Assembly (NCBI GenBank): GCA_050949175.1
Contig: JBMNFG010000011.1
Location: 195,749-259,748 of the forward strand
Direction: 5' to 3'
DNA: 64,000 bases
From: Bacillota bacterium
GTDB taxonomy: Bacteria; Bacillota; SHA-98; UBA4971
How positions within the stretch are numbered: position 1 is the stretch's first letter; the number at the start of each line of letters is the position of its first letter. Below the pieces are notes generated by a model. The model saw nothing but the letters and a program-made list of their open reading frames with translations. It did no database searches and was not told where the DNA came from. A program made the position numbers and the translations under genes. Below are positions 4,592-60,262 of the stretch, one piece after another.

Positions 4592-4787
4592 ACGGAATTC
4601 CTCCTATGAATAATCAAGTCTGCTACTTTGATAATTATTATGAAGATTTTAGTGTGGCTTGTTGGTAACAAAATGCTTGTTCTCAGATTTAGATTCCCCG
4701 CCGGGCATGGATCTCCTTCTCGAATTTGTGCGGCAAGATTCAAAATCCATCTACACCATTCGACAAGCTATTCTCATGTATGACAGC

Positions 4788-5075
4788 GGATCTTGCCGCG
4801 CCTTGTATAGCGAACCTTGCTGCGCCTCGCAGAGCGAACCTTGGTGTTTCTTGTACGCGAATCTTACTGTCTCTTGTATAGCGGGCCCTGCTATCTCTTG
4901 TACGCAGATCTTACTGCGCCTCGCCCAGTGAACCTTTCTGTCGCCTGTATAGCGAGCCTTGCTGTTTCCTGTATAGCGAGCCTTGCTGTTTCCTGTATAG
5001 CGAACCTTTCTGTCTCTTGTACGGCGGACCTTGCTGTGTCTTGTACAGCGAACCGTACTGTCTCTTGCACAGCGG
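4788..5075. repeat. tandem array A: about 12 degenerate units of about 24 bp (consensus CTTGCTGTNTCTTGTATAGCGAAC)
   Basis: Direct reading of the sequence. Lies between the MATE stop codon and the nrdJ start codon. ORF-track ORFs here (4751-5179, 4817-5152, 4891-5142) are repeat artefacts. Confidence 0.9.
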
Positions 5076-5117
5076 GTGTTGCCATGTCGTGTTGCGAGTA
5101 TACTAAAACTGCGGTAG

Positions 5118-6488: not shown

Positions 6489-6650
6489 AGTTTCTTCATC
6501 TCCTAAGTTGGACGCATCCCCTACTTTAACAAAAACCTTCATCTGCCGCAAGATACAGAGTCCGGTCTTCGTGTCCCTGTCATACTGCTTTGCCATTGCG
6601 ACACCGCAGGACGACGCCCCATTTATTATCGTCGATCTTTTCGGTGTTCG

Positions 6651-6980
6651 CTAGTAGGGTACCGCAGCCTCACCACAGTCCAGTGTCCGCCACTAGGGTA
6701 CCACAGTCCACAGCCCGGTCTCCTCTAGTAGGGTACCAGAACCGGTGTCATCTAGTAGAGTACCACAGCCCTGTGTCCGCCAGCAGGGTACCACAGTCCA
6801 CAGCCCGGTCTCCTCTAGTAGGGTACGTGAGCTCGTTGTCCTCTAGTAGAGCACCATAGTTCGGTGTCCTGTAGTAGAGTACCACAGCCCAGTGCCCTCT
6901 AGTAGAGTACCACAGCCCAGTGTCCTGTAGTAGGGTACCAGAGCCCAGTGTCCTGTAGTAGGCTATCACAGCCCGATAGC
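6651..6980. repeat. tandem array B: about 10 units of about 30 bp (CTAGTAGRGTACCACAGYCCAGTGTCCTG)
   Basis: Direct reading. Lies immediately upstream of the MATE start codon. Confidence 0.9.
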
Positions 6981-7064
6981 TACAAAAAGCGGCAGAAATC
7001 TAACTACATTTCCTCATCCAACCACACTTCCTTACATCGCCGGCCGGATTTGGGCCACCTCTTG

Positions 7065-7560
7065 AGATTTTTTCGGGCACATGCTCATAAGTGGTCTGTT
7101 TTCAACCACCTTTCCTCAAAGAGGTGCTTCAATTTCGACCACACTTTCCGATTTTTTCGAGCAAATGTTCATAAATGGGAGATTTTGAACCACCAAAACC
7201 GGCTCAGGTGGTAGAGATTCGACCACATTTTCAGGTTGTAGGCGGGTTTTGGGAGCTTTTTCGGGCTTAGGTGGTAGATTCTCTACCACATTTTCTAAGA
7301 ACGTGGCAGTTTTTCGCCCACCTTTTCAGAAAATGTGGGCGAGTTTCGACCACCAAACCGTGATTTGTAAGATTATGGGAGGCGCGGTGGTCGATATTCT
7401 ACCACCTTAACGCCTGATCATGGTAGAAAACCTTCCACCTTTAGGCCTCCTGGTGGGCGAAACTCTACCATTTTAGAGCTTACGCTCAAAACTGTGGTCG
7501 AAAAGCTGCCACCAAAAGGCGTTAAGGTGGTTGGTTTTCGACCACTCCAGCCCGTATGCC
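7065..7560 (-). repeat. dispersed hairpin-array element, copy 1 (inverted relative to copies 2 and 3)
   Basis: The reverse complement of 7300-7380 matches 38180-38260 almost base for base. The element is built of 20-nt hairpin cores GGTGGTMGA-N4-TCKACCACC. Confidence 0.88.
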
Positions 7561-8058
7561 TAGGCATTGGTGTATCGACGCATGCCTCGACGCCAGTATA
7601 TTGACAAATGCCCAGGCGCCAGTATATTAACGGATGCCTATGTGCCAGCGTATTGAGGTATACCTAGGCGTTAGTATATTAACGCGTGCCTAGGCGTTGG
7701 AGTGTTGACGAATGCATAGGCATTGGTGAATAGACGCATGTCTAATCGTCAGTGTATTGACGCAGGCATAGGCGTTAGTGTGTTCACGCATTGCTAGGCG
7801 ATAGCGATCGACTCAGGCCTAGTATGCCTAGGCATTGACATGTTGATGCGTGCCTAGGCGATACTGTATTGACGCATGCGGAGCATACCTAAGCGCTAGT
7901 GTATTGGCGCATTCCTAGGCCATACTTCATTGACGCAGACCTAGCATGCGTAGACGCTAACGTATCGACACGTGCCTAGGCGCCGGTGTATCGACACATG
8001 CATAGTCACTGGTGTATTGACGCATGCATAGGCTTTGGTGTATTGACGCATGCCTAGG
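7553..8058. repeat. tandem array C: about 17 units of about 30 bp (GCATGCCTAGGCGTTAGTGTATTGACGCAT)
   Basis: Direct reading. Abuts copy 1 of the dispersed element and the 3' end of the A2M-like gene. Confidence 0.9.
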
Positions 8059-25169: not shown

Positions 25170-25535
25170 CAGCCAGGAAAACCTTCGCGTCTAGTGTATC
25201 ATGGAAGAATTCCCCGTCTTGTATATCCTGGAAAAGCTTCGCGCCCAGTCTATCCTGGAAACACTCAGCGTCTTGTATAGCCTAGAAATTCTTCGCGCGT
25301 TGTATAGCCTGGAAAAACCTCGCGTCCTGTGTATCCAGGAAGCCTGGAAAAACCTCGCGCCCTGTGTATCCAGGAGAGGCTTCGCGTGCAATACGTGCCG
25401 GAAAGACTTCGTGTCTGCTTTAACCTTGACGGACCTCGCGTCTTGTATATACCCCAAACACCTCACTGCCAGTGTATCCTGGATAGACTCTGCGTCTAGT
25501 ATATCCTGGAAAGACTTCACCTGTAGTATAGCACA
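25170..25535. repeat. tandem array D: about 12 units of about 30 bp (CTTCGCGTCTTGTATAKCCTGGAAAAG)
   Basis: Direct reading. Lies immediately upstream of tilS. It shares the decamer CTTGTATAGC with array A. Confidence 0.88.
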
Positions 25536-25559
25536 AGTAAGCATACAAACGCTTCCATC

Positions 25560-26570
25560 TTTCCCTAAGCGCGAGCGCGTTGAACCGGCGGATTGGCTCA
25601 TCAGGAGAACCGACCAAAAGATTCAGGAAGCTTCTCGCATTTAACATGGCTCATGTCGTGCGCCAATGAACGCCATTTTGTGACGTACCAGCGCCGGAAT
25701 GGCTCCTCGACAAAGCCATTCAAGAGGATTCAGACTCCTTTTAGCCGCCGATTGGCTCATCGTGTGCGCCATTTAAGCTCATCTAAGACTCTTCGTGCGC
25801 ATGGATGGCTCTCACACAGAGCCATCCATGCACATTTACGGTCCTTTGAAGTCCTTTTGAGGCCAGAACGGATCATCAGTTAAGCCATTCAGAGCTGTCT
25901 TCAAGCTTTTTTGTCTTAGATCGGCTCGCGTGGTGAGCCATTCCGATCGATTTGAGAGTTTGTCAGCAGTTGATCGGCTCATCACGTGAGCCAACATGCG
26001 CATTTAAGTTCCTTTTGATGCCCTGTTGCGGCCAAAACGGTTCACAGGGTGAGCCATTCACAGCGACCCTAGCGCTTTTTGCTCCTAGATCGGCTCACGT
26101 GGTGAGCCATTCCGATCGCTTTGAGAGTTTGTTAGCAGTTGATCGGCTCATCACGTGAGCCAACATGCGCATTTAAGTTCCTTTTGATGCCCTGTTGCGG
26201 CCAAAACGGTTCACGAGGTGAGCCAATCATGCCGACCTGAGGAGTTGTTGCCCGCGGATTGGCTCGCACCGTAAGCCATTCTCACCGGTTTAGTCGCTTT
26301 CAGGTAGTAGATCGGCTCGTGATTGGCTCGCTTTATGAGCCAACCCGAGCCGTCTAACGGTTTCTCAGCAAACACATGGTTCTTCGGAAGAGCCATCTGG
26401 GTCTACTTGAGACTCTTGCTGCTATCGAACGGCTCACTCCATAAGCCGCTCGGGTCCGCTTCAGGCTTTTCGGGCTGCTAAATGGCTCTCGCCATGAACC
26501 GACCAGAAGGATTTGCCTATGTGCGTATGCTTGTGCAGTCGATCAGCTCGCGGGATCAGACAATTTGCCC
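25560..26570. repeat. array E: about 1 kb of about 50-bp units built on the palindrome (AT)GGCTCA-N3-5-TGAGCC(AT), with a near-identical 160-bp higher-order duplication at 25941-26100 and 26101-26260
   Basis: Direct reading. Includes a perfect 14-bp inverted repeat GCATGGATGGCTCT-cacac-AGAGCCATCCATGC. Confidence 0.9.
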
Positions 26571-29122: not shown

Positions 29123-29704
29123 TGAGCCTCTATCAACTCTGCCTTTTTTAGAAGTCCTCCTATCGAGTCCATTTCCGTCAAATCCATCAGTCTCAGATCG
29201 ATAAGCTCCGGGTGTACTTCGGCCGGTCTTACTTTTACCACGCCTATTACCTGCACCTATTGATGATACCCGTACCCTTTTACCCTGGCCCAGAGAAACA
29301 CCATATCCGGAACAACGAGAGGTTCTGTGCTTAGCCTCTCTACCCATCCCCGGCTCCCCCTTTTCTTGCCCGCAGTGGGTTGTCCCACAGTTGACTGACT
29401 GTTGCGATACTACCACAGGGGGTTGGGAGGAACCTGACGGAAATTGTACTCATCGCCACAAAATCTTGCGGCATGCCTTTCTCGAAATCTCCAAAAGTCA
29501 GCCCCGCATTCAAAGAGTACCCATGAACATCGTCTTGCTTCTTAATCCTTTGCTAGCTGGTTTTCAGTGGTTTTGTTCGGAGGATCAGCCGAGCAGAAAT
29601 CACAGGTTAAGGAGGAATGCGGCATGTTGGCAACTCGGTAGGGGATGATGACACATCAGTAAGGCATTTGACTATTCTCGCCACATAAAAACCTCGTCCC
29701 CGGT

Positions 29705-29800
29705 TTCATGCAACGTTTAGCAAGAGTATTGACTTGGTCTTTGTATGAGTATGAACACGGACAGCGGAGCAGATACAAGGATTGACTTGCTCTTTGTAAG
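29705..29800 (+). promoter_or_regulatory. pair of about 30-bp direct repeats ATTGACTTGNTCTTTGTAWGAGTATGAAC upstream of the lysE-family gene
   Basis: Direct reading. Each repeat has a TTGACT -35-like hexamer. Confidence 0.35.
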
Positions 29801-29934
29801 AGTATGAACCGCACAGGTGAGCAGGTCCTTTGCAAGACCCACGCACATCCACGCACATCTATGAATGGACGCAAGCAGAATCTGAGTGTATACTAATGAG
29901 ACTGAGTACTCGGCAGATGAGGAGATACTGTAAA

Positions 29935-34094: not shown

Positions 34095-34335
34095 AGGTTT
34101 CAGAATGCCCTAAACGGCGTCGGTCTCTCTACAGGGCACCGGTCTTTCCATACAGGGCATAGATTTTTCCCTACACCGCGTAGATATCTCCCTACAAGGC
34201 ATCGGCCTTTCATTACAAGGCATCGGCATCTCCTGAAAATGCATCGGTCCCTCCTTACACAGCATTGGTCTATCCGTACAAAGCATCGGTATCTCCCTAC
34301 AGAGCATCGGTCTCTCCTCACACAGCGCCGGCCTC
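34095..34335. repeat. tandem array F: about 11 units of 22 bp (GGCATCGGTCTCTCCCTACAGA)
   Basis: Direct reading. Lies in the divergent promoter gap between the hlyD-like and YIP1-family genes. Confidence 0.88.
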
Positions 34336-35229: not shown

Positions 35230-35475
35230 GCTTAATGAAAGAACAGGTTTTCTGAAGATGCTTTTCTGAATGTGCTTTTCTGAATGCGCTTCTCTGAATA
35301 TGGTTTTCCAAAAATGCTTTGTTTGCAAAAACATCCACAGGAAGGAAAGCTATACGAATAAGCTGTACAAACACAATAATAGTTAGAACTCATTCACCTT
35401 GGGCTACTCTATTAGTCACTCTATTAGCTACTCTATTAGTTACTCTATTAGCTACTCTATTAGCTACTCTGTTAC
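35230..35475. repeat. two short arrays: 13-bp unit TGCTTTTCTGAAT x about 6, and 12-bp unit CTACTCTATTAG x about 6.5
   Basis: Direct reading. Lie in the convergent gap between the YIP1 and ade genes; the second overlaps the ade stop region. Confidence 0.85.
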
Positions 35476-37269: not shown

Positions 37270-37975
37270 GTCTCTCCCTCCTTAAGTCACGGGCCTTGCA
37301 TCTGTTTAAGTCGCGGACCTTACCCAAGGTTAAGGTAAGGTCCTTACCTATGTTTAAGTCACAGGCCTTACCCATGTTTCCTATGCTATATACCAGACTG
37401 CCGTCTCCTTTGTTTCCTCAGTTGTTTCCCCAGCTATATACCAGGCCGCCGTCTCCTTATGACGGGCTACGATCCCCTCTACACAGCTCTGACTGCCATC
37501 TCCTCATGACGAGCTATGATTCCGCCGCCATAACTATATACTAGACTGCCGTCTCCTTGCCGTCTCCTTATGATGGGCTACGATCCCGCCTCCACGACTC
37601 TGGGCCATAGTTGTGCTTTTCACGTTTGGGCTTTCCATAGTCGTGCCCTTTTGTATTTTTTCTGCAAATTGCTCGCAAGTCCTCCCCTCACTGCTGTGGT
37701 AGGAAACCCTTCATCGGTAAGCTTTTGCTGCTACATTCGCAATTCTCTCCCACCCTGACAGATTCAGGCATTGCCAATAATCTAGTTCAAAGCTTGTCCG
37801 GCTCAAAGTTTGCCCAGTTCACAGCCTGTTTAGTTCAAAGGCCGTTTAGTTCAAAGCCTGTCCCTTTTAAAGCGTTTCCTTTTTAAAGCTTGTCTGTTAC
37901 AAAGCTTATCCATTTCAAAGACTGTCCATCTCAAAGACTGTCCGTTTCAAAGATTGTCCATTTCAAAGATTACGC
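37270..37975. repeat. compound repeat block upstream of ade: GTTTAAGTCRCGGRCCTTRC x4, CTATATACCAGRCYGCCGTCTCCTT x3, then a 20-bp array GTCCATTTCAAAGACTGTCC x about 10
   Basis: Direct reading. Confidence 0.85.
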
Positions 37976-38011
37976 ACGATGGAATTCCTGACATTGTTGC
38001 GGAACGGCGAA

Positions 38012-38495
38012 GCCCCGGTGGTCGAAAACCGCCCACCGTTTGGCTGTTTGATGGCAGTTTTTCTACCACGGTTTTGAGCGTAAGCTCTAAAATGGTAGAG
38101 TTTCGCCCACCAGGAGGCTCAAAGGTGGAAGGTTTTCTACCATGATCAGGCGTTGAGGTGGTAGGATATCGACCACCACGACTCCCATAATCTGACAAAT
38201 CACGGTTTGGTGGTCGAAACTCGCCCACATTTTCTGAAAAAGTGGGCGAAAAACTGCCACCTTTTCCAAAAAAGTGGTAGAGAATCTACCACCTGAGCCT
38301 TAAAAAGCTCCCAAAACCGGGCTCCAACCTGAAAATGTGGTCGATTCTCTACCACCTGAGGCAGTTTTGGTGGTTCAAAATCGTCCATTAATGAGCATTT
38401 GCTCGAAAAAACCGGAAAGTGTGGTCGAGATTGAACCACCTCTTGAAGGAAAGCTGGTTGAAAATCTACCATTTATGAGCATTTGCTCAAACAAA
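38012..38495 (+). repeat. dispersed hairpin-array element, copy 2
   Basis: About 12 cores such as GGTGGTAGAGAATCTACCACC (9-bp perfect stem). About 85-90% identical to copy 3 and to the reverse complement of copy 1. Confidence 0.88.
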
Positions 38496-38689
38496 TCCAA
38501 AAGGATAGTCCAAACTGAACTACTGTTCCTAAGAAACATGGCAGAAACTCGCCTACCCCTACCGACAGTATCGACGGCCGTGGCACCATCGACGGTAATG
38601 AGGAATAATTCTGATCAGAAGAGATCCTGATTAGAAAAACCCTGATCAAGGAGGGTTCGGATCAGGGAAAAGCCCAGCGTGCTCACGTA

Positions 38690-38790
38690 CGGAACAAGCA
38701 TCTATGGGACAACCCCCTATGCGACAACAATCCATGAGACAACAATCCATGAGGCAACAACCTAGGGGACAACAACCTAGGGGACAACAA
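38690..38790. repeat. short array CAACAATCCATGAGR / CAACAACCTAGGGGA x about 6
   Basis: Direct reading. Abuts the 3' end of the dehydrogenase gene. Confidence 0.8.
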
Positions 38791-39778
38791 CGTTTTGCGG
38801 ATTTCCTTCGATGAATCTCAGGATGTTTTCGCAGGTGGTGTCAAGAATGCGCAAGGTAGCCTCGCGGCTGTTGAAGGCATTGTGCGGGGTTATTACCACG
38901 TCTTCCCTGCGTAGAAGCATTTGGTTTTGTACAAATGTCTTCAGGACGTTTTTTGAATAGTCCTTATTCAGAACATAACCCTCTTCCAGCATAAGCTCCT
39001 CACCCTCCAGCACGTCAAGGCCTGCGCCTCCGAGGATCCCTTGGTCCAAAGCCCATACCAGCGCTTCTGTCTCGACTAATCCTCCCCTTGCCGTGTTTAT
39101 CAAGATTGCGCCTTTCTTGACTTTCTTAAGGCTCTCCTTATTAATCAGATGATGAGTCTTCTTGTTGTATGGCACATGCAGCGAGATTACGTCTGACGAG
39201 CCCAGCAGCTCTTCAAATGGGACGTAGCGGTAGCCTAAGACTTCTGCCAAAAAGACATCTTTCTTTGTATCATAGGCTAGGACCTCCATGCCAAAGCCTT
39301 TGGCAATTCTGATTACGTGCATACCGATTTTTCCGCACCCTATGACACCGAGAGTCTTGCGTTTAAGGTCAAACCCTTGCAAATCCTCGAGGGAAAAGTC
39401 TTGACGGATAGTCCTACAGTAAGCCTTATGGACATTTCGCGAAAGCGCCAGTATAAGGGCAAATGTATGTTCAGCGACAGTGTTTTCGCCGTAAAACGGC
39501 ACATTCACCACATGTATCTTGTTCTTCTTACAAAACTCAATATCTATATGGTCGAAACCTGTGGATCTCGTCGCTATCAGCTTGAGTTCAGGGAACTTCC
39601 GAAGAGTATCCGAAGTCAGATGAGAGTAAATGAATACTGAAATGCCCCATGAATCGGTAAGACCGTCAAGGTCGGTCTCCTGCACTGTCTCATGGGAAAA
39701 TGCAGTCTCAACATCGCGAAGACGCGTGCGGTACCTATCCTTTTCCCACTTCCCTACCTCAAAGAAAGCGATTTTCAT
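38777..39778 (-). CDS. D-isomer-specific 2-hydroxyacid dehydrogenase, NAD-binding
   Basis: GVIGCGKIGMHV Rossmann motif and the catalytic R/E/H arrangement. Start MKIAFF at 39778; the ORF is open to 39817. Confidence 0.85.
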   Translation of the reverse strand: MKIAFFEVGKWEKDRYRTRLRDVETAFSHETVQETDLDGLTDSWGISVFIYSHLTSDTLRKFPELKLIATRSTGFDHIDIEFCKKNKIHVVNVPFYGENTVAEHTFALILALSRNVHKAYCRTIRQDFSLEDLQGFDLKRKTLGVIGCGKIGMHVIRIAKGFGMEVLAYDTKKDVFLAEVLGYRYVPFEELLGSSDVISLHVPYNKKTHHLINKESLKKVKKGAILINTARGGLVETEALVWALDQGILGGAGLDVLEGEELMLEEGYVLNKDYSKNVLKTFVQNQMLLRREDVVITPHNAFNSREATLRILDTTCENILRFIEGNPQNVVVP

Positions 39779-39861
39779 AGGCTTAGTTTGCCACGGGCCT
39801 CTTGCACTCATGCGCAAGGGGTGTCATAATAATAAAGACATGAAAATTCCATAAAGATGTC

Positions 39862-39980
39862 CGCTGGGGGTGCTGCACATCTCTTCTGTGTGTGGCTGAG
39901 AAGGTCTAGTTAAGGCCTACCCTTTGAACCTGATCACATAATGTCCTGGGTAATGCCAGCGTAGGGAAGCGGGTGATATC
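39862..39980 (+). promoter_or_regulatory. TPP (THI-box) riboswitch aptamer
   Basis: GGGGGUGCUG...GGCUGAGAAGG...UACCCUUUGAACCUGAUC...GGGUAAUGCCAGCGUAGGGAAGCGGG matches the TPP riboswitch consensus blocks. It carries an about 11-nt insertion, ACAUAAUGUCC, between the CUGAUC and GGGUAAU blocks. Confidence 0.85.
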
Positions 39981-40008
39981 TGGTAAGAAGAGGCGTAAGA
40001 TTAGGTTG

Positions 40009-40050
40009 AAAAGGCCGCGGACACATTAGAGTCCCGCGGCCTTAAGTTTT
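40009..40050 (+). terminator. riboswitch expression-platform terminator
   Basis: GGCCGCGGAC-N10-GUCCCGCGGCC followed by UUAAGUUUU. Confidence 0.65.
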
Positions 40051-40059
40051 AATGGGGTA

Positions 40060-40150
40060 CTGATCGGAAAAACTATCAGAAATCCGGGAAAGTATCAGAA
40101 ACACCACAAAGCATGAGAAACTCCACAAAGCATTAGAAACACCGCTTAGG
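40060..40150. repeat. array M: about 18-bp units AGCATKAGAAACYCCACAA x about 5, inside the thiT leader
   Basis: Direct reading. Lies between the riboswitch terminator and the thiT RBS. Confidence 0.8.
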
Positions 40151-40186
40151 TAAGTCCTAGATTACTTTCAGAGGAGTTGTTCAAAA

Positions 40187-40837
40187 GTGACTGATTCATC
40201 ATGGCTGAAGAGCGTGGGAGATGCCCTTCTAAGAACAGAGAATATTATTATGATTGTGGCCATAGGCATCCTGGTCTATCTTTTGTGGCTCACAAATCCA
40301 TCTAAAACGAAGACAAGTGCAGGTAGAAGGCCTGTCTATACGATAACTGAAATCGGCGTGGCTGTTGCGCTTGCTTCGATACTCGGTATGATTAGACTCT
40401 ACAGAATGCCTCAAGGAGGCTCAGTTTCCCTGGAAATGCTGCCTATCTTCTACGTCGCACTCCGGAGCGGCGGAGGTGTAGGCATACTGACAGGCCTTGC
40501 ATTAGGGCTTGTACAATTGCTCTTAGGAGCGTATATCGTCCATCCGGTGCAACTCCTTCTTGACTACCCTCTGGCATTTGCCTTCCTCGGAGTGGCAGGT
40601 TTCTTCCGAAGACACCAGGTGCTCGGAATCATCTTAGGCGGGCTGGGCAGGTTCATAATGCACGTATTGTCAGGCGTTGTGTTCTTCGGAACCTATGCCC
40701 CGGAAGGGACTAACGTGTGGCTGTACTCAATGACATATAATGCGTCTTATATGATACCTGAACTCATCATCTGCATAATCGTCATGCTTGTCCTGGGTTT
40801 AGGGAGAAGCACCTCCACATCTGTGGGAAGAGGGTAG
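40187..40837 (+). CDS. thiT: thiamine transporter ThiT (ECF S-component, YuaJ family)
   Basis: 6-TM protein. The block LRSGGGVGILTGLALGLVQLLLGAYIVHP...LLLDYPLAFAFLGVAGFFRR aligns to L. lactis ThiT (LRRGLTAGLVGGLIWGIL...HAYIL...LEYLVAPVSLGIAGLFRQ). GTG start with a GAGGAG RBS. The TPP riboswitch lies upstream. Confidence 0.78.
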   Translation: MTDSSWLKSVGDALLRTENIIMIVAIGILVYLLWLTNPSKTKTSAGRRPVYTITEIGVAVALASILGMIRLYRMPQGGSVSLEMLPIFYVALRSGGGVGILTGLALGLVQLLLGAYIVHPVQLLLDYPLAFAFLGVAGFFRRHQVLGIILGGLGRFIMHVLSGVVFFGTYAPEGTNVWLYSMTYNASYMIPELIICIIVMLVLGLGRSTSTSVGRG

Positions 40838-53639: not shown

Positions 53640-54860
53640 TTGACGAGTACCGTAGTTGAGCTCACCGGGCATATTATTGATTCGAGGAGCCTTCCTAAGG
53701 TGCTGGACGTCATTATCGAGCGAGGCGGCGACTTCGACATCGAAGAACTCAAAGTAGGTAGGAAGAACAATGACCCTAGCTATGCCAGGATAATGATTGA
53801 AGCAGAAAGTCAGGAAGCCCTGGACATGATACTTGAAGAAATAAGACGTTTGGGTGCTGTTGAAATGCATCTGGATGAGGCAGAGGTAGAACCGGCACCG
53901 AAAGACGGAGTATTTCCGGACAACTTCTATTCCAGCACTAACCTGGAGACATTTTTGAAGATTCGTGGTTCATGGATCCCTGTAGATGACATTGAGATGG
54001 ATTGCGGCATTGTCGTTGATTTCTCAGGGGACCCCCCCACAGCTCGCTGCGTGCCTCTGGGCAACATAAAGAAAGGCGACATGGTAGTTGTCGGAGGAAA
54101 AGGAATCAAAGTGATTCCCCTTGAGAAATCCAGGAAACGAGAGGTATTCAGTTTCATGGGGAGTGAAGTGTCCAGTGAGCGCCCTAAGGCCTTGGCTTTA
54201 GCAAGCATCGCTGAGACAATGAAAGACATCAGGTCCCGCAATAAGAAGATCCTTGCAGTTGTAGGGCCTGCAGTTATCCATACAGGCGCAGGCAGGCATC
54301 TTTCCGCGCTTATTGACGCAGGCTATATCAATGTACTGTTCGGCGGAAATGCCGTAGCAACCCATGACGTGGAATGGGCCTTGCTGGGAACCTCCCTCGG
54401 CGTTTATCTGGACACAGGGATTGCAGCTCCTGCAGGGCATACCCACCATATTAAGGCGATTAACACAATCCGAAAGTACGGAAGCTTTGAAAAAGCTGTA
54501 GAAGCAGGCGTGCTTACTAAGGGGATCATGTATTCATGTGTCAAGAACGGAATAGACTACGTCCTTGCAGGATCAATACGAGACGATGGGCCGATGCCGG
54601 GTGTCATCACTGATTCGGCAGAAGCTCAAGATGCAATGCGCCGTTGCCTGAAAGATGTGGAGTTAGCGCTGATGCTGTCTACAATGCTGCACTCCATAGC
54701 CACAGGCAATCTGCTGCCGGGAAAGGTCAAGACGGTGTGTGTCGATATAAACCCTGCTACCGTTACAAAGCTGGTAGACCGCGGCAGCCACCAGGCTGTG
54801 GGGGTAGTAAGTGACGTAGAGCTGTTCTTGAAAGAACTGGCGTATCAACTTATAGGGTAG
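53640..54860 (+). CDS. LOR/SDH-conserved-region (TIGR00300) family protein, archaeal-type ornithine-cyclodeaminase-like
   Basis: 406 aa. The N-terminus MTSTVVELTGHIIDSRSLPKVLDVI and the overall length fit the family. Assigned from memory of the family, not from a search. Confidence 0.5.
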   Translation: MTSTVVELTGHIIDSRSLPKVLDVIIERGGDFDIEELKVGRKNNDPSYARIMIEAESQEALDMILEEIRRLGAVEMHLDEAEVEPAPKDGVFPDNFYSSTNLETFLKIRGSWIPVDDIEMDCGIVVDFSGDPPTARCVPLGNIKKGDMVVVGGKGIKVIPLEKSRKREVFSFMGSEVSSERPKALALASIAETMKDIRSRNKKILAVVGPAVIHTGAGRHLSALIDAGYINVLFGGNAVATHDVEWALLGTSLGVYLDTGIAAPAGHTHHIKAINTIRKYGSFEKAVEAGVLTKGIMYSCVKNGIDYVLAGSIRDDGPMPGVITDSAEAQDAMRRCLKDVELALMLSTMLHSIATGNLLPGKVKTVCVDINPATVTKLVDRGSHQAVGVVSDVELFLKELAYQLIG

Positions 54861-54990
54861 CTGCTTATAGGATAGTTGATTATCGCATAGTTGCGGATAG
54901 TTGCCTATCGGATAGTTGCTTATCGGATAGTTGCTTATCGGATAGCTACTTATGGGATAATTGCTTAATAGGATCGCTGCTTGTAGGGTA
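54856..54990. repeat. array O: 13-bp unit GGATAGTTGCTTATC x about 10
   Basis: Direct reading. Starts at the stop codon of the preceding gene. Confidence 0.85.
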
Positions 54991-55757: not shown

Positions 55758-57551
55758 TTGTCCCGGCTCAGACGGCTCCTTACACTAGCCCTCTTAAGTC
55801 CCATTTTCCCCGCATTTTTATGGGGGCCTTTCACCCATACGCACATTAACAGGAAAGCCTTGCAGAAAGCCAAGAAGCTTATGGAAAGCGGTGACGACAC
55901 AATCAACAAGCCGCTCGTCAACATGCTCACTTCATCAAAGAGAGTCCAAGAATCATATGCACTCGCCGCCAACGGTGCTGATGCCATATCCAGCTACCAT
56001 ACGTTAAATAACTTTACGGCCTACGACTATACCCATAATTCAATTCCTGACAACGCGAAAGGCCTTCCGAATTTCGGCTACACCCTGGTAGATACCTGGC
56101 ACAAGATGCCTGAATCAGCATGGAGTTCTCCTGATGCGAGGCTCCTCGACCTGGCTATTGCCTGCGGTTGGCTGTCTCATCAAGTAGCGGACTGGTACGC
56201 GCATTATGCATGTATAGACGGAGACGGCAACCTATGTGACCCGGAAGATGCCATAGCTGACGAAGTTTTTCGGTTTTCCGGATACTCCGATTCTCATAGA
56301 GTGATCGGGCACGATTATCCCGTGCCTCATCTTCGCCGCTATAACCTGGCTGACCATGGTTTGGCTGAATTTCTGGTAGATACGATAATCGTCGCCTCCC
56401 CCGACGGGCCGCAATTGCGCAATCTCTCCCTTCCCAACCTCTCGACTTTGAAAAACGGCTCCAATATTATCAGCACCGCATCTTTGGATTTCGGAGGGGC
56501 TGTTAAACTTCCCGAGGACCATGTCCCTATCTTGTGGCAAAACATGAACTTGATACTCCTGGGAATGTCCATCTTGCAGAAGCTGATATACCTGCGCAAG
56601 CCCAACTTCCACCGTGAAGCCGAACAGGTGGTCACCACGAAATATGTGGATCTTTCCATAGATCGCGTTGTAGATAAGGTCTTTAGAAAGAGTTTTGACG
56701 AAATGGCTGAGCTGGCAAGGTTCGGTAGGAAAATCCGCTCCCGGAACATGCCTATTGAACCATTAGACTCTAAGATCCAAAAGTATCCTGGCACTGTAAT
56801 ATTCAAGATAGCGCACTCCCTCGCGTCCTCTATGTCTCTTCCCGGCGGAAGTATCAGCCAAGCAACGTTCAATCGCACCCTAGCCATGATCGACAACCCT
56901 CTGGTGGCCTTTGAAAAAGCTCCTGTAATCGGCCCTTTAATGCGCTCACAATCCATAAGAAAAATCTTGTGGAACAAGGTAGGAAAACCGTCCCTTGAAA
57001 CCCTGATCACCGAATCCCTTGACAGCCTCGGAGGTCCTGACAAAGGTGTGCGAATACCTACAAGAGATGCACTCCTTGTCCTAGCCAATGCAGTGCTGCT
57101 AAAAGGAAGATCTTTAGAAAAGGCCCGACAGGACCTTGCATTGTCGCTGAAGCCTGTCATAACGGTGGTAAACTACGATGGGACAGCACTGGCTTCAGGT
57201 GCGGAATTGCCGACACAAAAAGAGCTCCTGGACATGGTGTTCAGACGACGAATGCTTATCTTCAGGCTCATACCGGCAGTCTCCAAACTGCGAGGCTTGC
57301 GTCATGCAGAGGAGAAATCTCTGGACATATCTTCGGTAAGGGTACGGTTCAACGGTTTTTCAATAACAGAATATCCGGAGTTCGCAGAAGCAGAGGCAAC
57401 TTACGAGAACGACAGCATAACCTCACCTGTGCTGGTTAAGGTCTCTTTTAAGTCCGGCTTCAGGCCAGGCAGGTACGACATCTTCGTTGACGTGCATGAC
57501 AAGGCCGGCGTGGGAGCTGAGTATCTCTACTGGGAGGTGGATCTCAGCTGA
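55758..57551 (+). CDS. secreted protein with N-terminal zinc-dependent phospholipase C / S1-P1-nuclease-like domain
   Basis: Signal peptide. After it, WGPFTHTHIN (the W-x-H metal ligand start) and a later HQVADWYAH His cluster. The C-terminal 300 aa are uncharacterised. Confidence 0.45.
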   Translation: MSRLRRLLTLALLSPIFPAFLWGPFTHTHINRKALQKAKKLMESGDDTINKPLVNMLTSSKRVQESYALAANGADAISSYHTLNNFTAYDYTHNSIPDNAKGLPNFGYTLVDTWHKMPESAWSSPDARLLDLAIACGWLSHQVADWYAHYACIDGDGNLCDPEDAIADEVFRFSGYSDSHRVIGHDYPVPHLRRYNLADHGLAEFLVDTIIVASPDGPQLRNLSLPNLSTLKNGSNIISTASLDFGGAVKLPEDHVPILWQNMNLILLGMSILQKLIYLRKPNFHREAEQVVTTKYVDLSIDRVVDKVFRKSFDEMAELARFGRKIRSRNMPIEPLDSKIQKYPGTVIFKIAHSLASSMSLPGGSISQATFNRTLAMIDNPLVAFEKAPVIGPLMRSQSIRKILWNKVGKPSLETLITESLDSLGGPDKGVRIPTRDALLVLANAVLLKGRSLEKARQDLALSLKPVITVVNYDGTALASGAELPTQKELLDMVFRRRMLIFRLIPAVSKLRGLRHAEEKSLDISSVRVRFNGFSITEYPEFAEAEATYENDSITSPVLVKVSFKSGFRPGRYDIFVDVHDKAGVGAEYLYWEVDLS

Positions 57552-57720
57552 TAGCTCGCGCCCGTCACTAATGCTGGTTAGGATCTCTTTTGAGTCCGGC
57601 TTCAGGCAGGCAGGTACGATATCCTCGTTGCGGTACATGACAAGACCGGCGTGGAAGCTGAGCACCTCTACTGGCAGGCAGATCCCAGCTGATAGCTAGC
57701 GTTCGTCAAACGCGATGTTA
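57552..57720 (+). repeat. degenerate tandem duplication of the last about 130 bp of the preceding gene (57420-57551), including its stop region
   Basis: Direct comparison. GATAGCTCGCGCCCGTCAC...GGCTTCAGGC...GGTACGA...GACAAG.CCGGCGTGG.AGCTGAG...CTCTACTGG occurs twice. Confidence 0.85.
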
Positions 57721-59149: not shown

Positions 59150-59191
59150 TGTAAACAGCTCGATTCCAACCCTCCCGTCCGAAGCGACAGC

Positions 59192-59675
59192 CTGGGGTGG
59201 TCGAAAAACAACCACCGAAACGCTCTTTAGTGGCAGCTTTTCTACCACAGTTTTGGGCGCTTGCTCGTAAATGGTAGATTCTCGCCCACCAGAACGCTCA
59301 AAGGTGGAAGGTTTTCTACCATGATCAGGTGCTAGGGTGGTAGGATATCGACCACCACGCCTCCCATAATCTGGTAATTTGCGGTTTAGTGGTCGAAACT
59401 CACCCACATTTTCTGAAAAAGTGGGCGAAAAACTGCCACGTTTTTAAAAAAAGTGGTAGAGAATCTACCACCTAAGCCCCAAAAAGCTCCGAAAACCGGG
59501 CCGCAACCTGAAAACGTGGTCGAATCTCTACCACCTGAGCCGGTTTGGGTGGTTCAGAATCGCCCATTTATGAACGTTTGCTCGAAAAAATCCAAAAGTG
59601 TGGTCGACATTGAACCACCTCTTCAAGGAAAGGTGGTTGAAACCGAACCATTTATGAGCGTTTGCTCGTAAAAAC
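59192..59675 (+). repeat. dispersed hairpin-array element, copy 3
   Basis: Collinear with copy 2 along the whole length (for example GTGGTAGAGAATCTACCACCTAAGCC, GTGGTCGAATCTCTACCACC). Confidence 0.88.
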
Positions 59676-60169
59676 CGGGAAGCGGGCTAAATCAGTTCAG
59701 CATTTCGAGAAAATGTGGTCGGAAACAGGCTCGGTTACCTTGCCTTAGCTCATCAAGCCCGGTTCTCAGAAGCTATGGCCTTCGTTAATAGGTGCAGTTA
59801 CGATTACATAGGTCCAGTTGAGATTACAGATGAGAGAAATCGTGTACTGTGTGAAAGCTACATAGCAACACCTCTCCCTAGGATCAGATAGTAGAAGGAT
59901 TGCTAGCGTATAAACGAGAGTATACAATATAGTAGGGTATATATCAGAGAGAAACACATGCAGGAAGCGTGGTTCGTAACTTCGTAACAAGGATACATGT
60001 AGAATCCTGATCCTTACCAGGACCGGAATTCTGCACAGGTACACCTGTTACCCGGCGTTTCTCTCAAACTTACAACGTCCGGCACTCTGATAGGGACTGT
60101 CAGTAGGCGGCTTTTTTCAAGAAGGCTGTTTTGCGAAGAGTCGTAACCGAGCAAGACCGCACTTTTGGA

Positions 60170-60262
60170 AAAGCTGCCGCAAGAAGAGCCTCAGAGCACT
60201 CAAAGCGCTCAAAGCACTGAGAGCATTCGGAGCACTCAGAGCACTCGGAGCACTCTTGGATC
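60170..60262. repeat. array T: 9-bp unit AGCACTCAG/AGCGCTCAA x about 9
   Basis: Direct reading, about 50 bp upstream of the GTG start of the next gene. Confidence 0.85.

Follow-up and report, generated by a model that had tools for sequence, protein, structure and literature searches.

Twelve helically phased palindromes in a dispersed intergenic element of a digester-associated Bacillota lineage

What is conserved in a non-coding element of about half a kilobase that recurs in the intergenic DNA of a bacterial chromosome, and for what might it be kept? The question is raised by a stretch of 64,000 nucleotides from a Bacillota bacterium (GenBank assembly GCA_050949175.1, contig JBMNFG010000011.1, positions 195,749 to 259,748 of the forward strand), referred to here as the window, which contains three copies of such an element. 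The window is chromosomal DNA of approximately 50% G+C from an uncultured, spore-forming anaerobe. The original prediction, made from the letters of the window, described each copy as a string of hairpins resembling either repetitive extragenic palindromic (REP) sequences and bacterial interspersed mosaic elements (BIMEs) or a structured RNA. As shown below, what is kept is the outer bases of each palindrome and the exact distances between palindromes, a pattern that points, tentatively, to an array of sites for a DNA-binding protein.

Copy 2, used here as the reference, lies on the forward strand at 38012..38500 and copy 3 on the same strand at 59191..59679; copy 1 is inverted relative to both (7063..7551, minus strand). 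Copies 1 and 3 are 89.4% and 86.4% identical to copy 2, respectively, and all pairwise identities of the three copies, each of ∼490 bp, fall at 86–89%. A repeat search of the window returned them as inverted arms (7049-7545 / 38018-38514, 88%; 7068-7555 / 59187-59674, 87%) and as a direct pair (38017-38316 / 59196-59495, 86%), and a three-way alignment has a mean column identity of 90% with almost no gaps. The search and the alignment together bear out the three predicted copies of about 490 bp, each with some 12 cores, at the places originally given for them. The 12 cores of each copy are imperfect 19-bp palindromes of the form GTGGTMGA-N3-TCKACCAC, with start-to-start spacings of 33, 41, 33, 33, 52, 32, 32, 63, 33, 51 and 33 bp. 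For the simpler pattern GTGG-N11-CCAC, dinucleotide shuffles predict 0.82 matches in the 64 kb; there are 23, and none falls outside the three copies. Some details of the earlier description required correction, in that the loop is of three and not four nucleotides, between half-sites of eight, and stems of 8–9 bp are not general: one core per copy (38274-38292 in copy 2) has a perfect 8-bp stem, and the remainder form four to seven Watson-Crick pairs out of eight. The spacers between cores are conserved between copies as proposed, albeit with lengths of 13–44 nt and not the 10–35 nt first reported. All copies are intergenic, as predicted; tandem arrays of unrelated units adjoin copy 1 on both sides, and others are found within 45–200 bp of copy 2.

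The element belongs to a dispersed family. At least 45 copies were recovered, all from biogas or digester samples, through a three-core pattern scan of metagenomes, one 'viral' contig and look-ups by protein. These include 26 distinct full-length copies of 487–489 nt, with a mean identity of 87% and a minimum of 78%. Stop codons interrupt all six frames in every one of the 26, coding potential is rejected, and the earlier view that there is no conserved open reading frame (ORF) is upheld. Clustering of the flanks distinguishes at least 17 left and at least 18 right contexts, one of which overlaps the window. The sequence of copy 2 is found with 100% identity in other samples (loci L042, L044 and L015; L numbers denote loci compared with the window), and the copy 1 locus is also present in metagenome contig L063. 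The neighbouring genes are ordinary and diverse, with no enriched or recurrent family beside the copies, and the intergenic regions that contain copies may be co-directional, convergent or divergent, with both orientations represented and no orientation bias. A RAYT/TnpA-REP-like gene had been suggested as a thing to look for; Pfam searches detected no transposase, Y1 or RAYT among 56 flanking ORFs (the 25 commonest of 73 matched families) or among 30 ORFs of the window. There was likewise no blastn match to the element in 72,556 plasmid and 50,697 phage records. The prediction of a dispersed, non-coding intergenic family therefore stands, many further copies having been found in metagenomes.

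A sister species, in which synteny is kept and adenine deaminase is 88% identical in protein, carries the element at the intergenic sites of both copy 2 and copy 3. The copy 2 orthologue occupies the same intergenic site at L164:9395-9885, and the copy 3 orthologue lies at L168:11168-11660 with spacings of 33, 41, 33, 33, 52, 32, 32, 62, 33, 51 and 32 bp, which differ from those of the window by 62 for 63 and by a last 32 for 33. Within the copy 2 pair the outer TGG/CCA triplets are 90% identical, the loop 72%, the inner half-site 65% and the spacers 54%, and there are two 1-nt gaps only in 455 nt. Four-fold degenerate sites in the two genes flanking the pair are 56–59% identical, and the remaining intergenic DNA around it cannot be aligned. 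Given these four-fold values, spacers at 54% indicate that the linkers drift at the neutral rate. We conclude that purifying selection acts on the outer triplets and on the exact spacing and does not extend to the linker sequence. Conservation of motif and register in this manner is the pattern that would be expected of protein contacts held in helical register, unlike that of RNA linkers or junk.

The occupancy of sites is less constant further afield, where in more distant relatives (81%, 75% and 74% identity) the spacers at the copy 2 and copy 3 sites are short and empty. Diverged members with the half-site GTGNTCGA lie upstream of spoIIE at L164:18515-18690 and L166:17773-18290, and matches of the element profile upstream of spoIIE have E values of 8e-8 in the sister species and 6e-16 in the 81% species. 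The orthologous spoIIE spacer in the window (29417-29829) is without the element. These spoIIE-site members show that the family spans at least three species-level lineages and that locus occupancy has changed over time.

The spacings follow the DNA helix. With core starts at 0, 33, 74, 107, 140, 192, 224, 256, 319, 352, 403 and 436, the Rayleigh R is 0.91 at 10.6 bp, which is the best period between 8 and 14 bp, and the phasing has p ∼0.002 under a null in which the seven 32/33-bp spacings are kept and only the four long ones randomised. The long spacings of 41, 52, 63 and 51 bp correspond to about 4, 5, 6 and 5 turns, an 84-nt module at the 3′ end of the element (see below) to about 8, and the sister-species copy is also spaced at integral helical turns. 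The base composition has the same period. AA/TT periodicity is strongest at 10.5–10.6 bp in each of five copies from two species, a result reached by none of 300 shuffles, and in four of the five the GG/CC peak coincides with that of AA/TT. Under the Bolshoy-Trifonov wedge model, taken to first order, the element DNA has a model helical repeat of 10.61 bp and a coherent bend over 480 bp of 332, 298 and 236 degrees for copies 1, 2 and 3, which places them at the 99.96th, 99.6th and 97.4th percentiles of all windows of the 64 kb; copies 1 and 2 are its two top-ranked segments. Solitary cores are effectively absent from ∼448 kb of same-species loci, and the motif is private to the arrays.

Does selection see the sequence of the half-sites or their ability to pair? 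In the alignment of 26 copies, 77% of cells are paired within cores, and 84% when the right half of a core is matched with the left half of the next. Covariation, which the original prediction had proposed as a check, was at the column-shuffle expectation on every measure for both pairing schemes among the 26 distinct copies. Several stem mismatches are fixed in all 26, and in related arrays the fourth base of the half-site changes independently on the two sides. The fixed mismatches, together with covariation at shuffle level, provide no evidence that selection sees base pairing; the conserved entity is the half-site sequence, not pairing. The view of the cores as hairpins is accordingly not sustained, given poor stems, pairing with neighbours that is as good or better, and no covariation. 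The element does fold with greater stability than shuffled sequences (z = -10.2 on the plus strand and -8.2 on the minus strand), and on the plus strand there are slightly more G-U pairs than A-C mismatches. In the minimum-free-energy fold, cores that lie far apart are paired together, a result judged uninformative because the 24 half-sites are all alike. A permissive search of Rfam 15 gave chance-level matches only (E ≥ 0.4), in agreement with the earlier statement that the core matches no recognised family. Beyond hairpins arising from the cores themselves, no conserved promoter or terminator was seen above chance, and the flanks differ at every locus.

The copies within a genome evolve in concert. 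Identity among paralogues is 86–89% for the window species and 81% for its sister species, and between-species pairs are 64–67% identical whether orthologous or not. Fixed species-diagnostic columns number 69, against 2 columns that support orthology, from which it follows that copies homogenise within a genome. Direct evidence of exchange comes from one sample, in which L039:8000-9255 (a 103-kb ERZ27280784 contig) is a hybrid of copy 2 and the copy at the L123 locus. It is identical to copy 2 over alignment columns 1–88 and to the L123 copy from column 60 to the end, placing the crossover between columns 59 and 89; the right flank is that of the L123 locus, and different genes follow (patatin, acylphosphatase). 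L039 is thus a chromosomal rearrangement by recombination between dispersed copies.

How might these observations be read together? That the palindromes and their spacing are kept and the intervening DNA is not suggests a docking array rather than an RNA gene or junk. Our preferred reading, to which we give somewhat less than an even chance, is that the element is a double-stranded DNA array of helically phased sites for one putative, probably dimeric, DNA-binding protein; protein binding, the identity of the binder and the role of the complex are what we infer here. Each 19-bp site would be read through its GTGGTMGA half-sites, with the outer TGG/CCA as the critical bases, and site centres 3, 4, 5 or 6 turns of 10.6 bp apart would place all of them on one face of the helix. 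The alternation of A/T-rich and G/C-rich dinucleotides at the site period over the whole 0.5 kb would impart a gentle, coherent curvature, and protein lining one face of the curved segment could form a large nucleoprotein complex by wrapping or bridging it. Candidate roles for such a complex include chromosome organisation, a barrier between supercoil domains, and insulation between transcription units. A more specific proposal, which we regard as rather doubtful, is that the elements are chromatin organisers, stand-alone 12-operator modules that would nucleate wrapped complexes with a dedicated protein and act as anchors or domain boundaries. Selection would then keep the contact triplets and the register, gene conversion would keep the copies uniform, and no particular gene would be regulated.

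A number of points weigh against reading the element as an array of protein sites. Because the copies evolve in concert, the two orthologous loci do not bear on selection independently of each other, and what the between-species comparison sets side by side is in effect the family consensus of each species. Motif and spacing could moreover be under selection for the sake of the element, by way of a mobilising or homogenising enzyme, and not of the host. The palindromes are equally compatible with single-stranded hairpins of the type used by HUH/Y1 enzymes, and the covariation tests have limited power because the stems vary little. The bend per 32 bp is ordinary, such that the feature is coherence and not sharp bending, and the curvature estimate comes from a first-order model. 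The solitary-core search found no autoregulated candidate gene with a solitary site.

Several other explanations have to be set beside an array of protein-binding sites. It is unlikely, in our judgement, that the element is a REP/BIME-like selfish, non-autonomous unit whose single-stranded hairpins would be mobilised in trans by a RAYT-like or other transposase, with motif and spacing conserved for the mobilising enzyme. Such a unit would be dispersed, intergenic and palindromic, as the element is in its 17 or more contexts, and the variable count of 84-nt two-core modules recalls BIME expansion (PMC2817692). Occupancy also differs, the copy 2 and copy 3 sites being empty in L166, L167 and L170 and the spoIIE-upstream member being present in L164 and L166 and not in the window, and many assemblies break inside the element. 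However, the cores are symmetric and lack the unpaired GTAG/CGTC tag (compare PMC3733652), neither Y1 nor any other transposase is found among the same 56 flanking ORFs (25 commonest of 73 families) or in the window, and the 12 cores have the same fixed order everywhere, unlike the variable composition of BIMEs. The positions are stable where four-fold sites are near saturation, there is no covariation, and no target-site duplication or terminal repeat was recognised. A functionless, diverged satellite, in which an old tandem array of ∼32–33 bp was copied around and kept uniform by gene conversion alone, we consider distinctly unlikely. The unusual richness of the window species in lineage-specific intergenic tandem arrays, the strength of concerted evolution (69 versus 2 columns), the recombination between copies and the decaying 3′ tail would all be in keeping with it, but gene conversion alone leaves unexplained why TGG/CCA stands at 90% with linkers at a neutral 54%, why indels are nearly absent, and why each of the four irregular spacings is a multiple of 10.6 bp.

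Two further explanations are less probable again. That the copies are structured non-coding RNA genes of about 0.5 kb, with a string of hairpins acting for example as a protein sponge, appears very unlikely to us, in spite of folds far more stable than shuffled sequence, the slight excess of G-U over A-C on the plus strand and the constant length. Stable folding is a trivial consequence of having 24 similar half-sites and is about as good on one strand as on the other; there is no covariation, no Rfam match and no conserved promoter or terminator, copies occur in either orientation relative to their neighbours, and neutral spacer sequence with fixed spacer length is not the usual pattern of RNA linkers. 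We give the slightest chance to a reiterated transposon end, in which the terminal binding site of an insertion sequence would have been duplicated over and over to form the array. The suggestion comes from locus L008, where about ten GTGGYAAG-N3-CTTRCCAC palindromes lie ∼32 bp apart starting 30 nt past the stop codon of a UPF0236/ISKra4 transposase and resemble the right end of their own insertion sequence, ...CCACAATCNTTACACGCACCC. The element profile misses the L008 array, no locus that carries the element has an ISKra4/UPF0236 transposase, homologous insertion sequences (L161-L163) have a single end and no array, and the linkers of the element are unlike the L008 terminal repeat. The insertion sequence itself (L008:5800-7650, DUMQ01000149.1, from another Bacillota metagenome-assembled genome, MAG) sits inside an IS3 orfA, and its array units combine a GTGG...CCAC palindrome with a CTTACAC-like terminus. 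The L008 array appears to be an independent phenomenon and not homologous to the element.

The individual cores of copy 2 are not equivalent. Core 1, GTGGTCGA-AAA-CCGCCCAC (38018..38036), forms the sharp 5′ edge of the strongly conserved part, and its right half differs among copies without compensating changes. It is preceded by a weakly conserved leader of about 35 nt (37975..38011, plus strand), read by eye from the flank alignment as roughly TTCC...CCGGRAGCGRCAG in several copies. Core 2, ATGGCAGT-TTT-TCTACCAC, occupies 38051..38069 and core 3, ATGGTAGA-GTT-TCGCCCAC, 38092..38110, followed by core 4, GTGGAAGG-TTT-TCTACCAT (38125..38143), which is invariant in the three window copies and nearly so across the 26. 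After core 5, GTGGTAGG-ATA-TCGACCAC (38158..38176), comes core 6, GTGGTCGA-AAC-TCGCCCAC (38210..38228), for which a variant GTGGTTGAAATCGATCCAC common to a subset of copies gives the family a mosaic pattern. Core 7, GTGGGCGA-AAA-ACTGCCAC (38242..38260), has three mismatched pairs fixed in all 26 copies, and core 8, GTGGTAGA-GAA-TCTACCAC (38274..38292), is the sole perfect 8-bp palindrome. The last four are core 9, GTGGTCGA-TTC-TCTACCAC (38337..38355), core 10, GTGGTTCA-AAA-TCGTCCAT (38370..38388), core 11, GTGGTCGA-GAT-TGAACCAC (38421..38439), and core 12, CTGGTTGA-AAA-TCTACCAT (38454..38472).

These last four cores belong to a tandem pair of 84-nt modules that make up the last 168 bp of the element (38326..38493, plus strand; 38326-38409 and 38410-38493), each of about eight helical turns and each containing an A-run and a small GAGCRTTTGCTC inverted repeat in addition to its two cores. 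Loci differ in how many modules they have, and L039 has several more, progressively degenerate. In copy 2 a degenerate tail (38503..38556, plus strand) is what remains of a third module and has two weak cores, one of them ATGGCAGAAACTCGCCTAC at 38538; tail cores differ from locus to locus.

The family also leaves traces in sequence collections. L015 (JAKOUW010000086.1, 1,145 bp), which is 100% identical to copy 2, is assigned to a Chloroflexota MAG, a placement that is probably due to mis-binning. Short-read assemblies break at the repeat: roughly a dozen contigs stop inside the element, and in one JGI scaffold (L043:8800-9300) it is interrupted by a run of ∼500 N. A viral-classed contig, IMG/VR UViG_3300002079_000077, ends in a copy (L046:4790-5407) that lies ∼170 bp beyond a tRNA gene, with a phage-type integrase nearby at the equivalent locus L123, and this copy is probably host DNA beside a prophage attachment site. 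In genome contigs the three-core pattern finds mostly unrelated 31–33-bp tandem repeats of high-GC genomes in addition to L008 and L015, and an array with a GTGGTC half-site at L156 was set aside as a simple tandem repeat that the element profile misses. Many genomes of Planctomycetota (Pirellulales) have exactly three GTGGRGCGAWTCGCYCCAC palindromes 32–33 bp apart (L003, L004, L006, L009, L010, L016, L017, L025, L026 and L028, and the metagenome loci L056, L065, L069, L090, L122, L132, L135, L143 and L153), which form a conserved triple operator-like site.

The genes of the window include those for AddAB, FtsH, TilS, SpoIIE, energy-coupling factor (ECF) transporters and an aldehyde:ferredoxin oxidoreductase. 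Its proteins are found again in hundreds of assemblies of biogas or anaerobic-digester origin that are labelled 'Firmicutes/Bacillota bacterium', and the nearest cultured relatives are Thermacetogenium, Moorella and Desulfotomaculum at ∼62% protein identity. Intergenic regions of the window species are long (1–1.5 kb) and packed with unrelated short tandem arrays, located in the window at 4785-5094, 6642-6993, 7556-8058, 25171-25545, 25819-26281, 34120-34326, 35248-35474, 37282-37379, 37786-37968, 38702-38791, 40089-40143, 54849-54987, 59788-59828 and 60185-60255. The periods of these arrays are 12–28 nt, plus one of 169 nt, their units are mutually unrelated, and they occur in nearly every long spacer. 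Relatives have much shorter spacers and far fewer arrays (over the syntenic 22 kb, 7 rows in L164 and 1 in L167), and the abundance of arrays looks like a lineage-specific expansion of intergenic DNA.

Other features of the window are noted here for completeness. A scan for tRNA and transfer-messenger RNA genes found none, and neither a thiamine pyrophosphate (TPP) riboswitch nor any other Rfam family reached the gathering score anywhere in the 64 kb. This includes 39818-40186, upstream of a YuaJ/ThiT-type thiamine transporter gene (40187-40837), where the lack of a TPP riboswitch is unusual for Bacillota. A 141-nt tandem duplication of 85% identity (57430-57708) lies at, and extends just past, the 3′ end of ORF 55758-57551, whose 597-residue product is without a Pfam match.

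Interspersed palindromic repeats are common in Proteobacteria, where their function is debated, and families from Gram-positive anaerobes have hardly been described. The family reported here has been compared near neutral saturation, and what survives is TGG/CCA and a base-pair-exact spacing equal to the helical repeat of DNA. The question of function can therefore be put in testable form: which protein recognises GTGGTMGA-N3-TCKACCAC along one helix face? The family further shows repeats of 0.5 kb evolving in concert and driving rearrangements in a natural population, and in practical terms it is a source of broken short-read assemblies and, probably, of mis-binning in biogas metagenomes.

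Several known classes of repeat were considered and rejected. The element is not a miniature inverted-repeat transposable element, in that 18 copies aligned with their flanks show no matching termini and no terminal inverted repeats, the latter as originally predicted; no target-site duplication was recognised in the same flank alignment, in which the 3′ edge is fuzzy and a strict assessment is not possible. Nor is it a clustered regularly interspaced short palindromic repeat (CRISPR) array, since the cores differ from one another and the 13–44-nt spacers are the same in every copy, nor a plasmid or phage iteron or centromere, given the lack of plasmid and phage matches and the chromosomal housekeeping neighbours. 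The Spo0A 0A box, the DnaA box, parS, CtsR and LexA operators, the DasR/NagR dre site, the AbrB TGGNA motif and the inner part of the Tn3-family terminal repeat show partial resemblance only to the half-site, and none is claimed. A keyword search of the literature for an earlier description returned nothing relevant, and as far as the libraries searched show, the repeat family is previously undescribed.

The closest structural comparison is with REPs and BIMEs. A REP is an imperfect palindrome of 20–40 bp, one end of which carries an unpaired tetranucleotide, GTAG or CGTC (PMC3733652). REPs and BIMEs are extragenic, typically at more than 100 copies per genome, with a cognate RAYT (Y1 transposase) gene flanked by repeats, and BIMEs are protein-binding and have a proposed role in chromosome organisation (PMC2817692). 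Both BIMEs and the present element are intergenic, dispersed and non-coding, consist of regularly spaced imperfect palindromes joined by defined linkers, and can grow by duplicating a two-palindrome unit. The composite organisation with few linker types that characterises BIMEs is found here in the 12 cores, the 32–63-bp spacings and the linkers conserved between copies. Unlike REPs, however, the cores are symmetric (GTGG...CCAC) and have no one-sided GTAG/CGTC tag, and unlike the G+C-rich stems of BIMEs theirs are short and A/T-centred; the 12 cores, their order and the total length are moreover shared by every copy, and the host is a member of the Bacillota. The likeness originally proposed thus holds for the organisation of the array with its conserved linkers, and fails for the missing REP tag. 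We know of no description of helical phasing as a rule for BIMEs.

Other families share some of these features. The Neisseria intergenic mosaic elements (NIMEs) consist of RS units bounded by 20-bp dRS3 palindromic repeats, dRS3 being a target of phage or transposase; as in the element, short palindromes alternate with a limited set of linkers, are intergenic and are substrates of recombination, although NIME composition varies by locus and there is no sequence similarity to the fixed 12-site unit. STAR in Staphylococcus aureus and BOX in Streptococcus pneumoniae are similarly multi-copy, intergenic, modular and non-coding Gram-positive repeats of unclear function. STAR is made of direct G+C-rich 14-mers and BOX of A, B and C modules, and neither has a fixed 12-site array.

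With regard to function, the best analogies that we can offer are Lrp, ParR on parC, and gyrase and IHF, which bind BIMEs. Lrp sites are three helical turns apart at pap and ilvIH, ParR binds the iterons of parC, and sites phased along a single helix face are conducive to cooperative binding and to wrapping of the DNA. Like these, the element has imperfect palindromes ∼32 bp or another integral number of turns apart on one helix face. The Lrp and ParR arrays, in contrast, are found at single loci beside the genes that they serve, whereas the element is stand-alone and multi-copy among unrelated housekeeping genes. We therefore place the element among the interspersed palindromic mosaic elements, in which company the conservation of register only, the helical register itself and the fixed layout of 12 sites are surprising.

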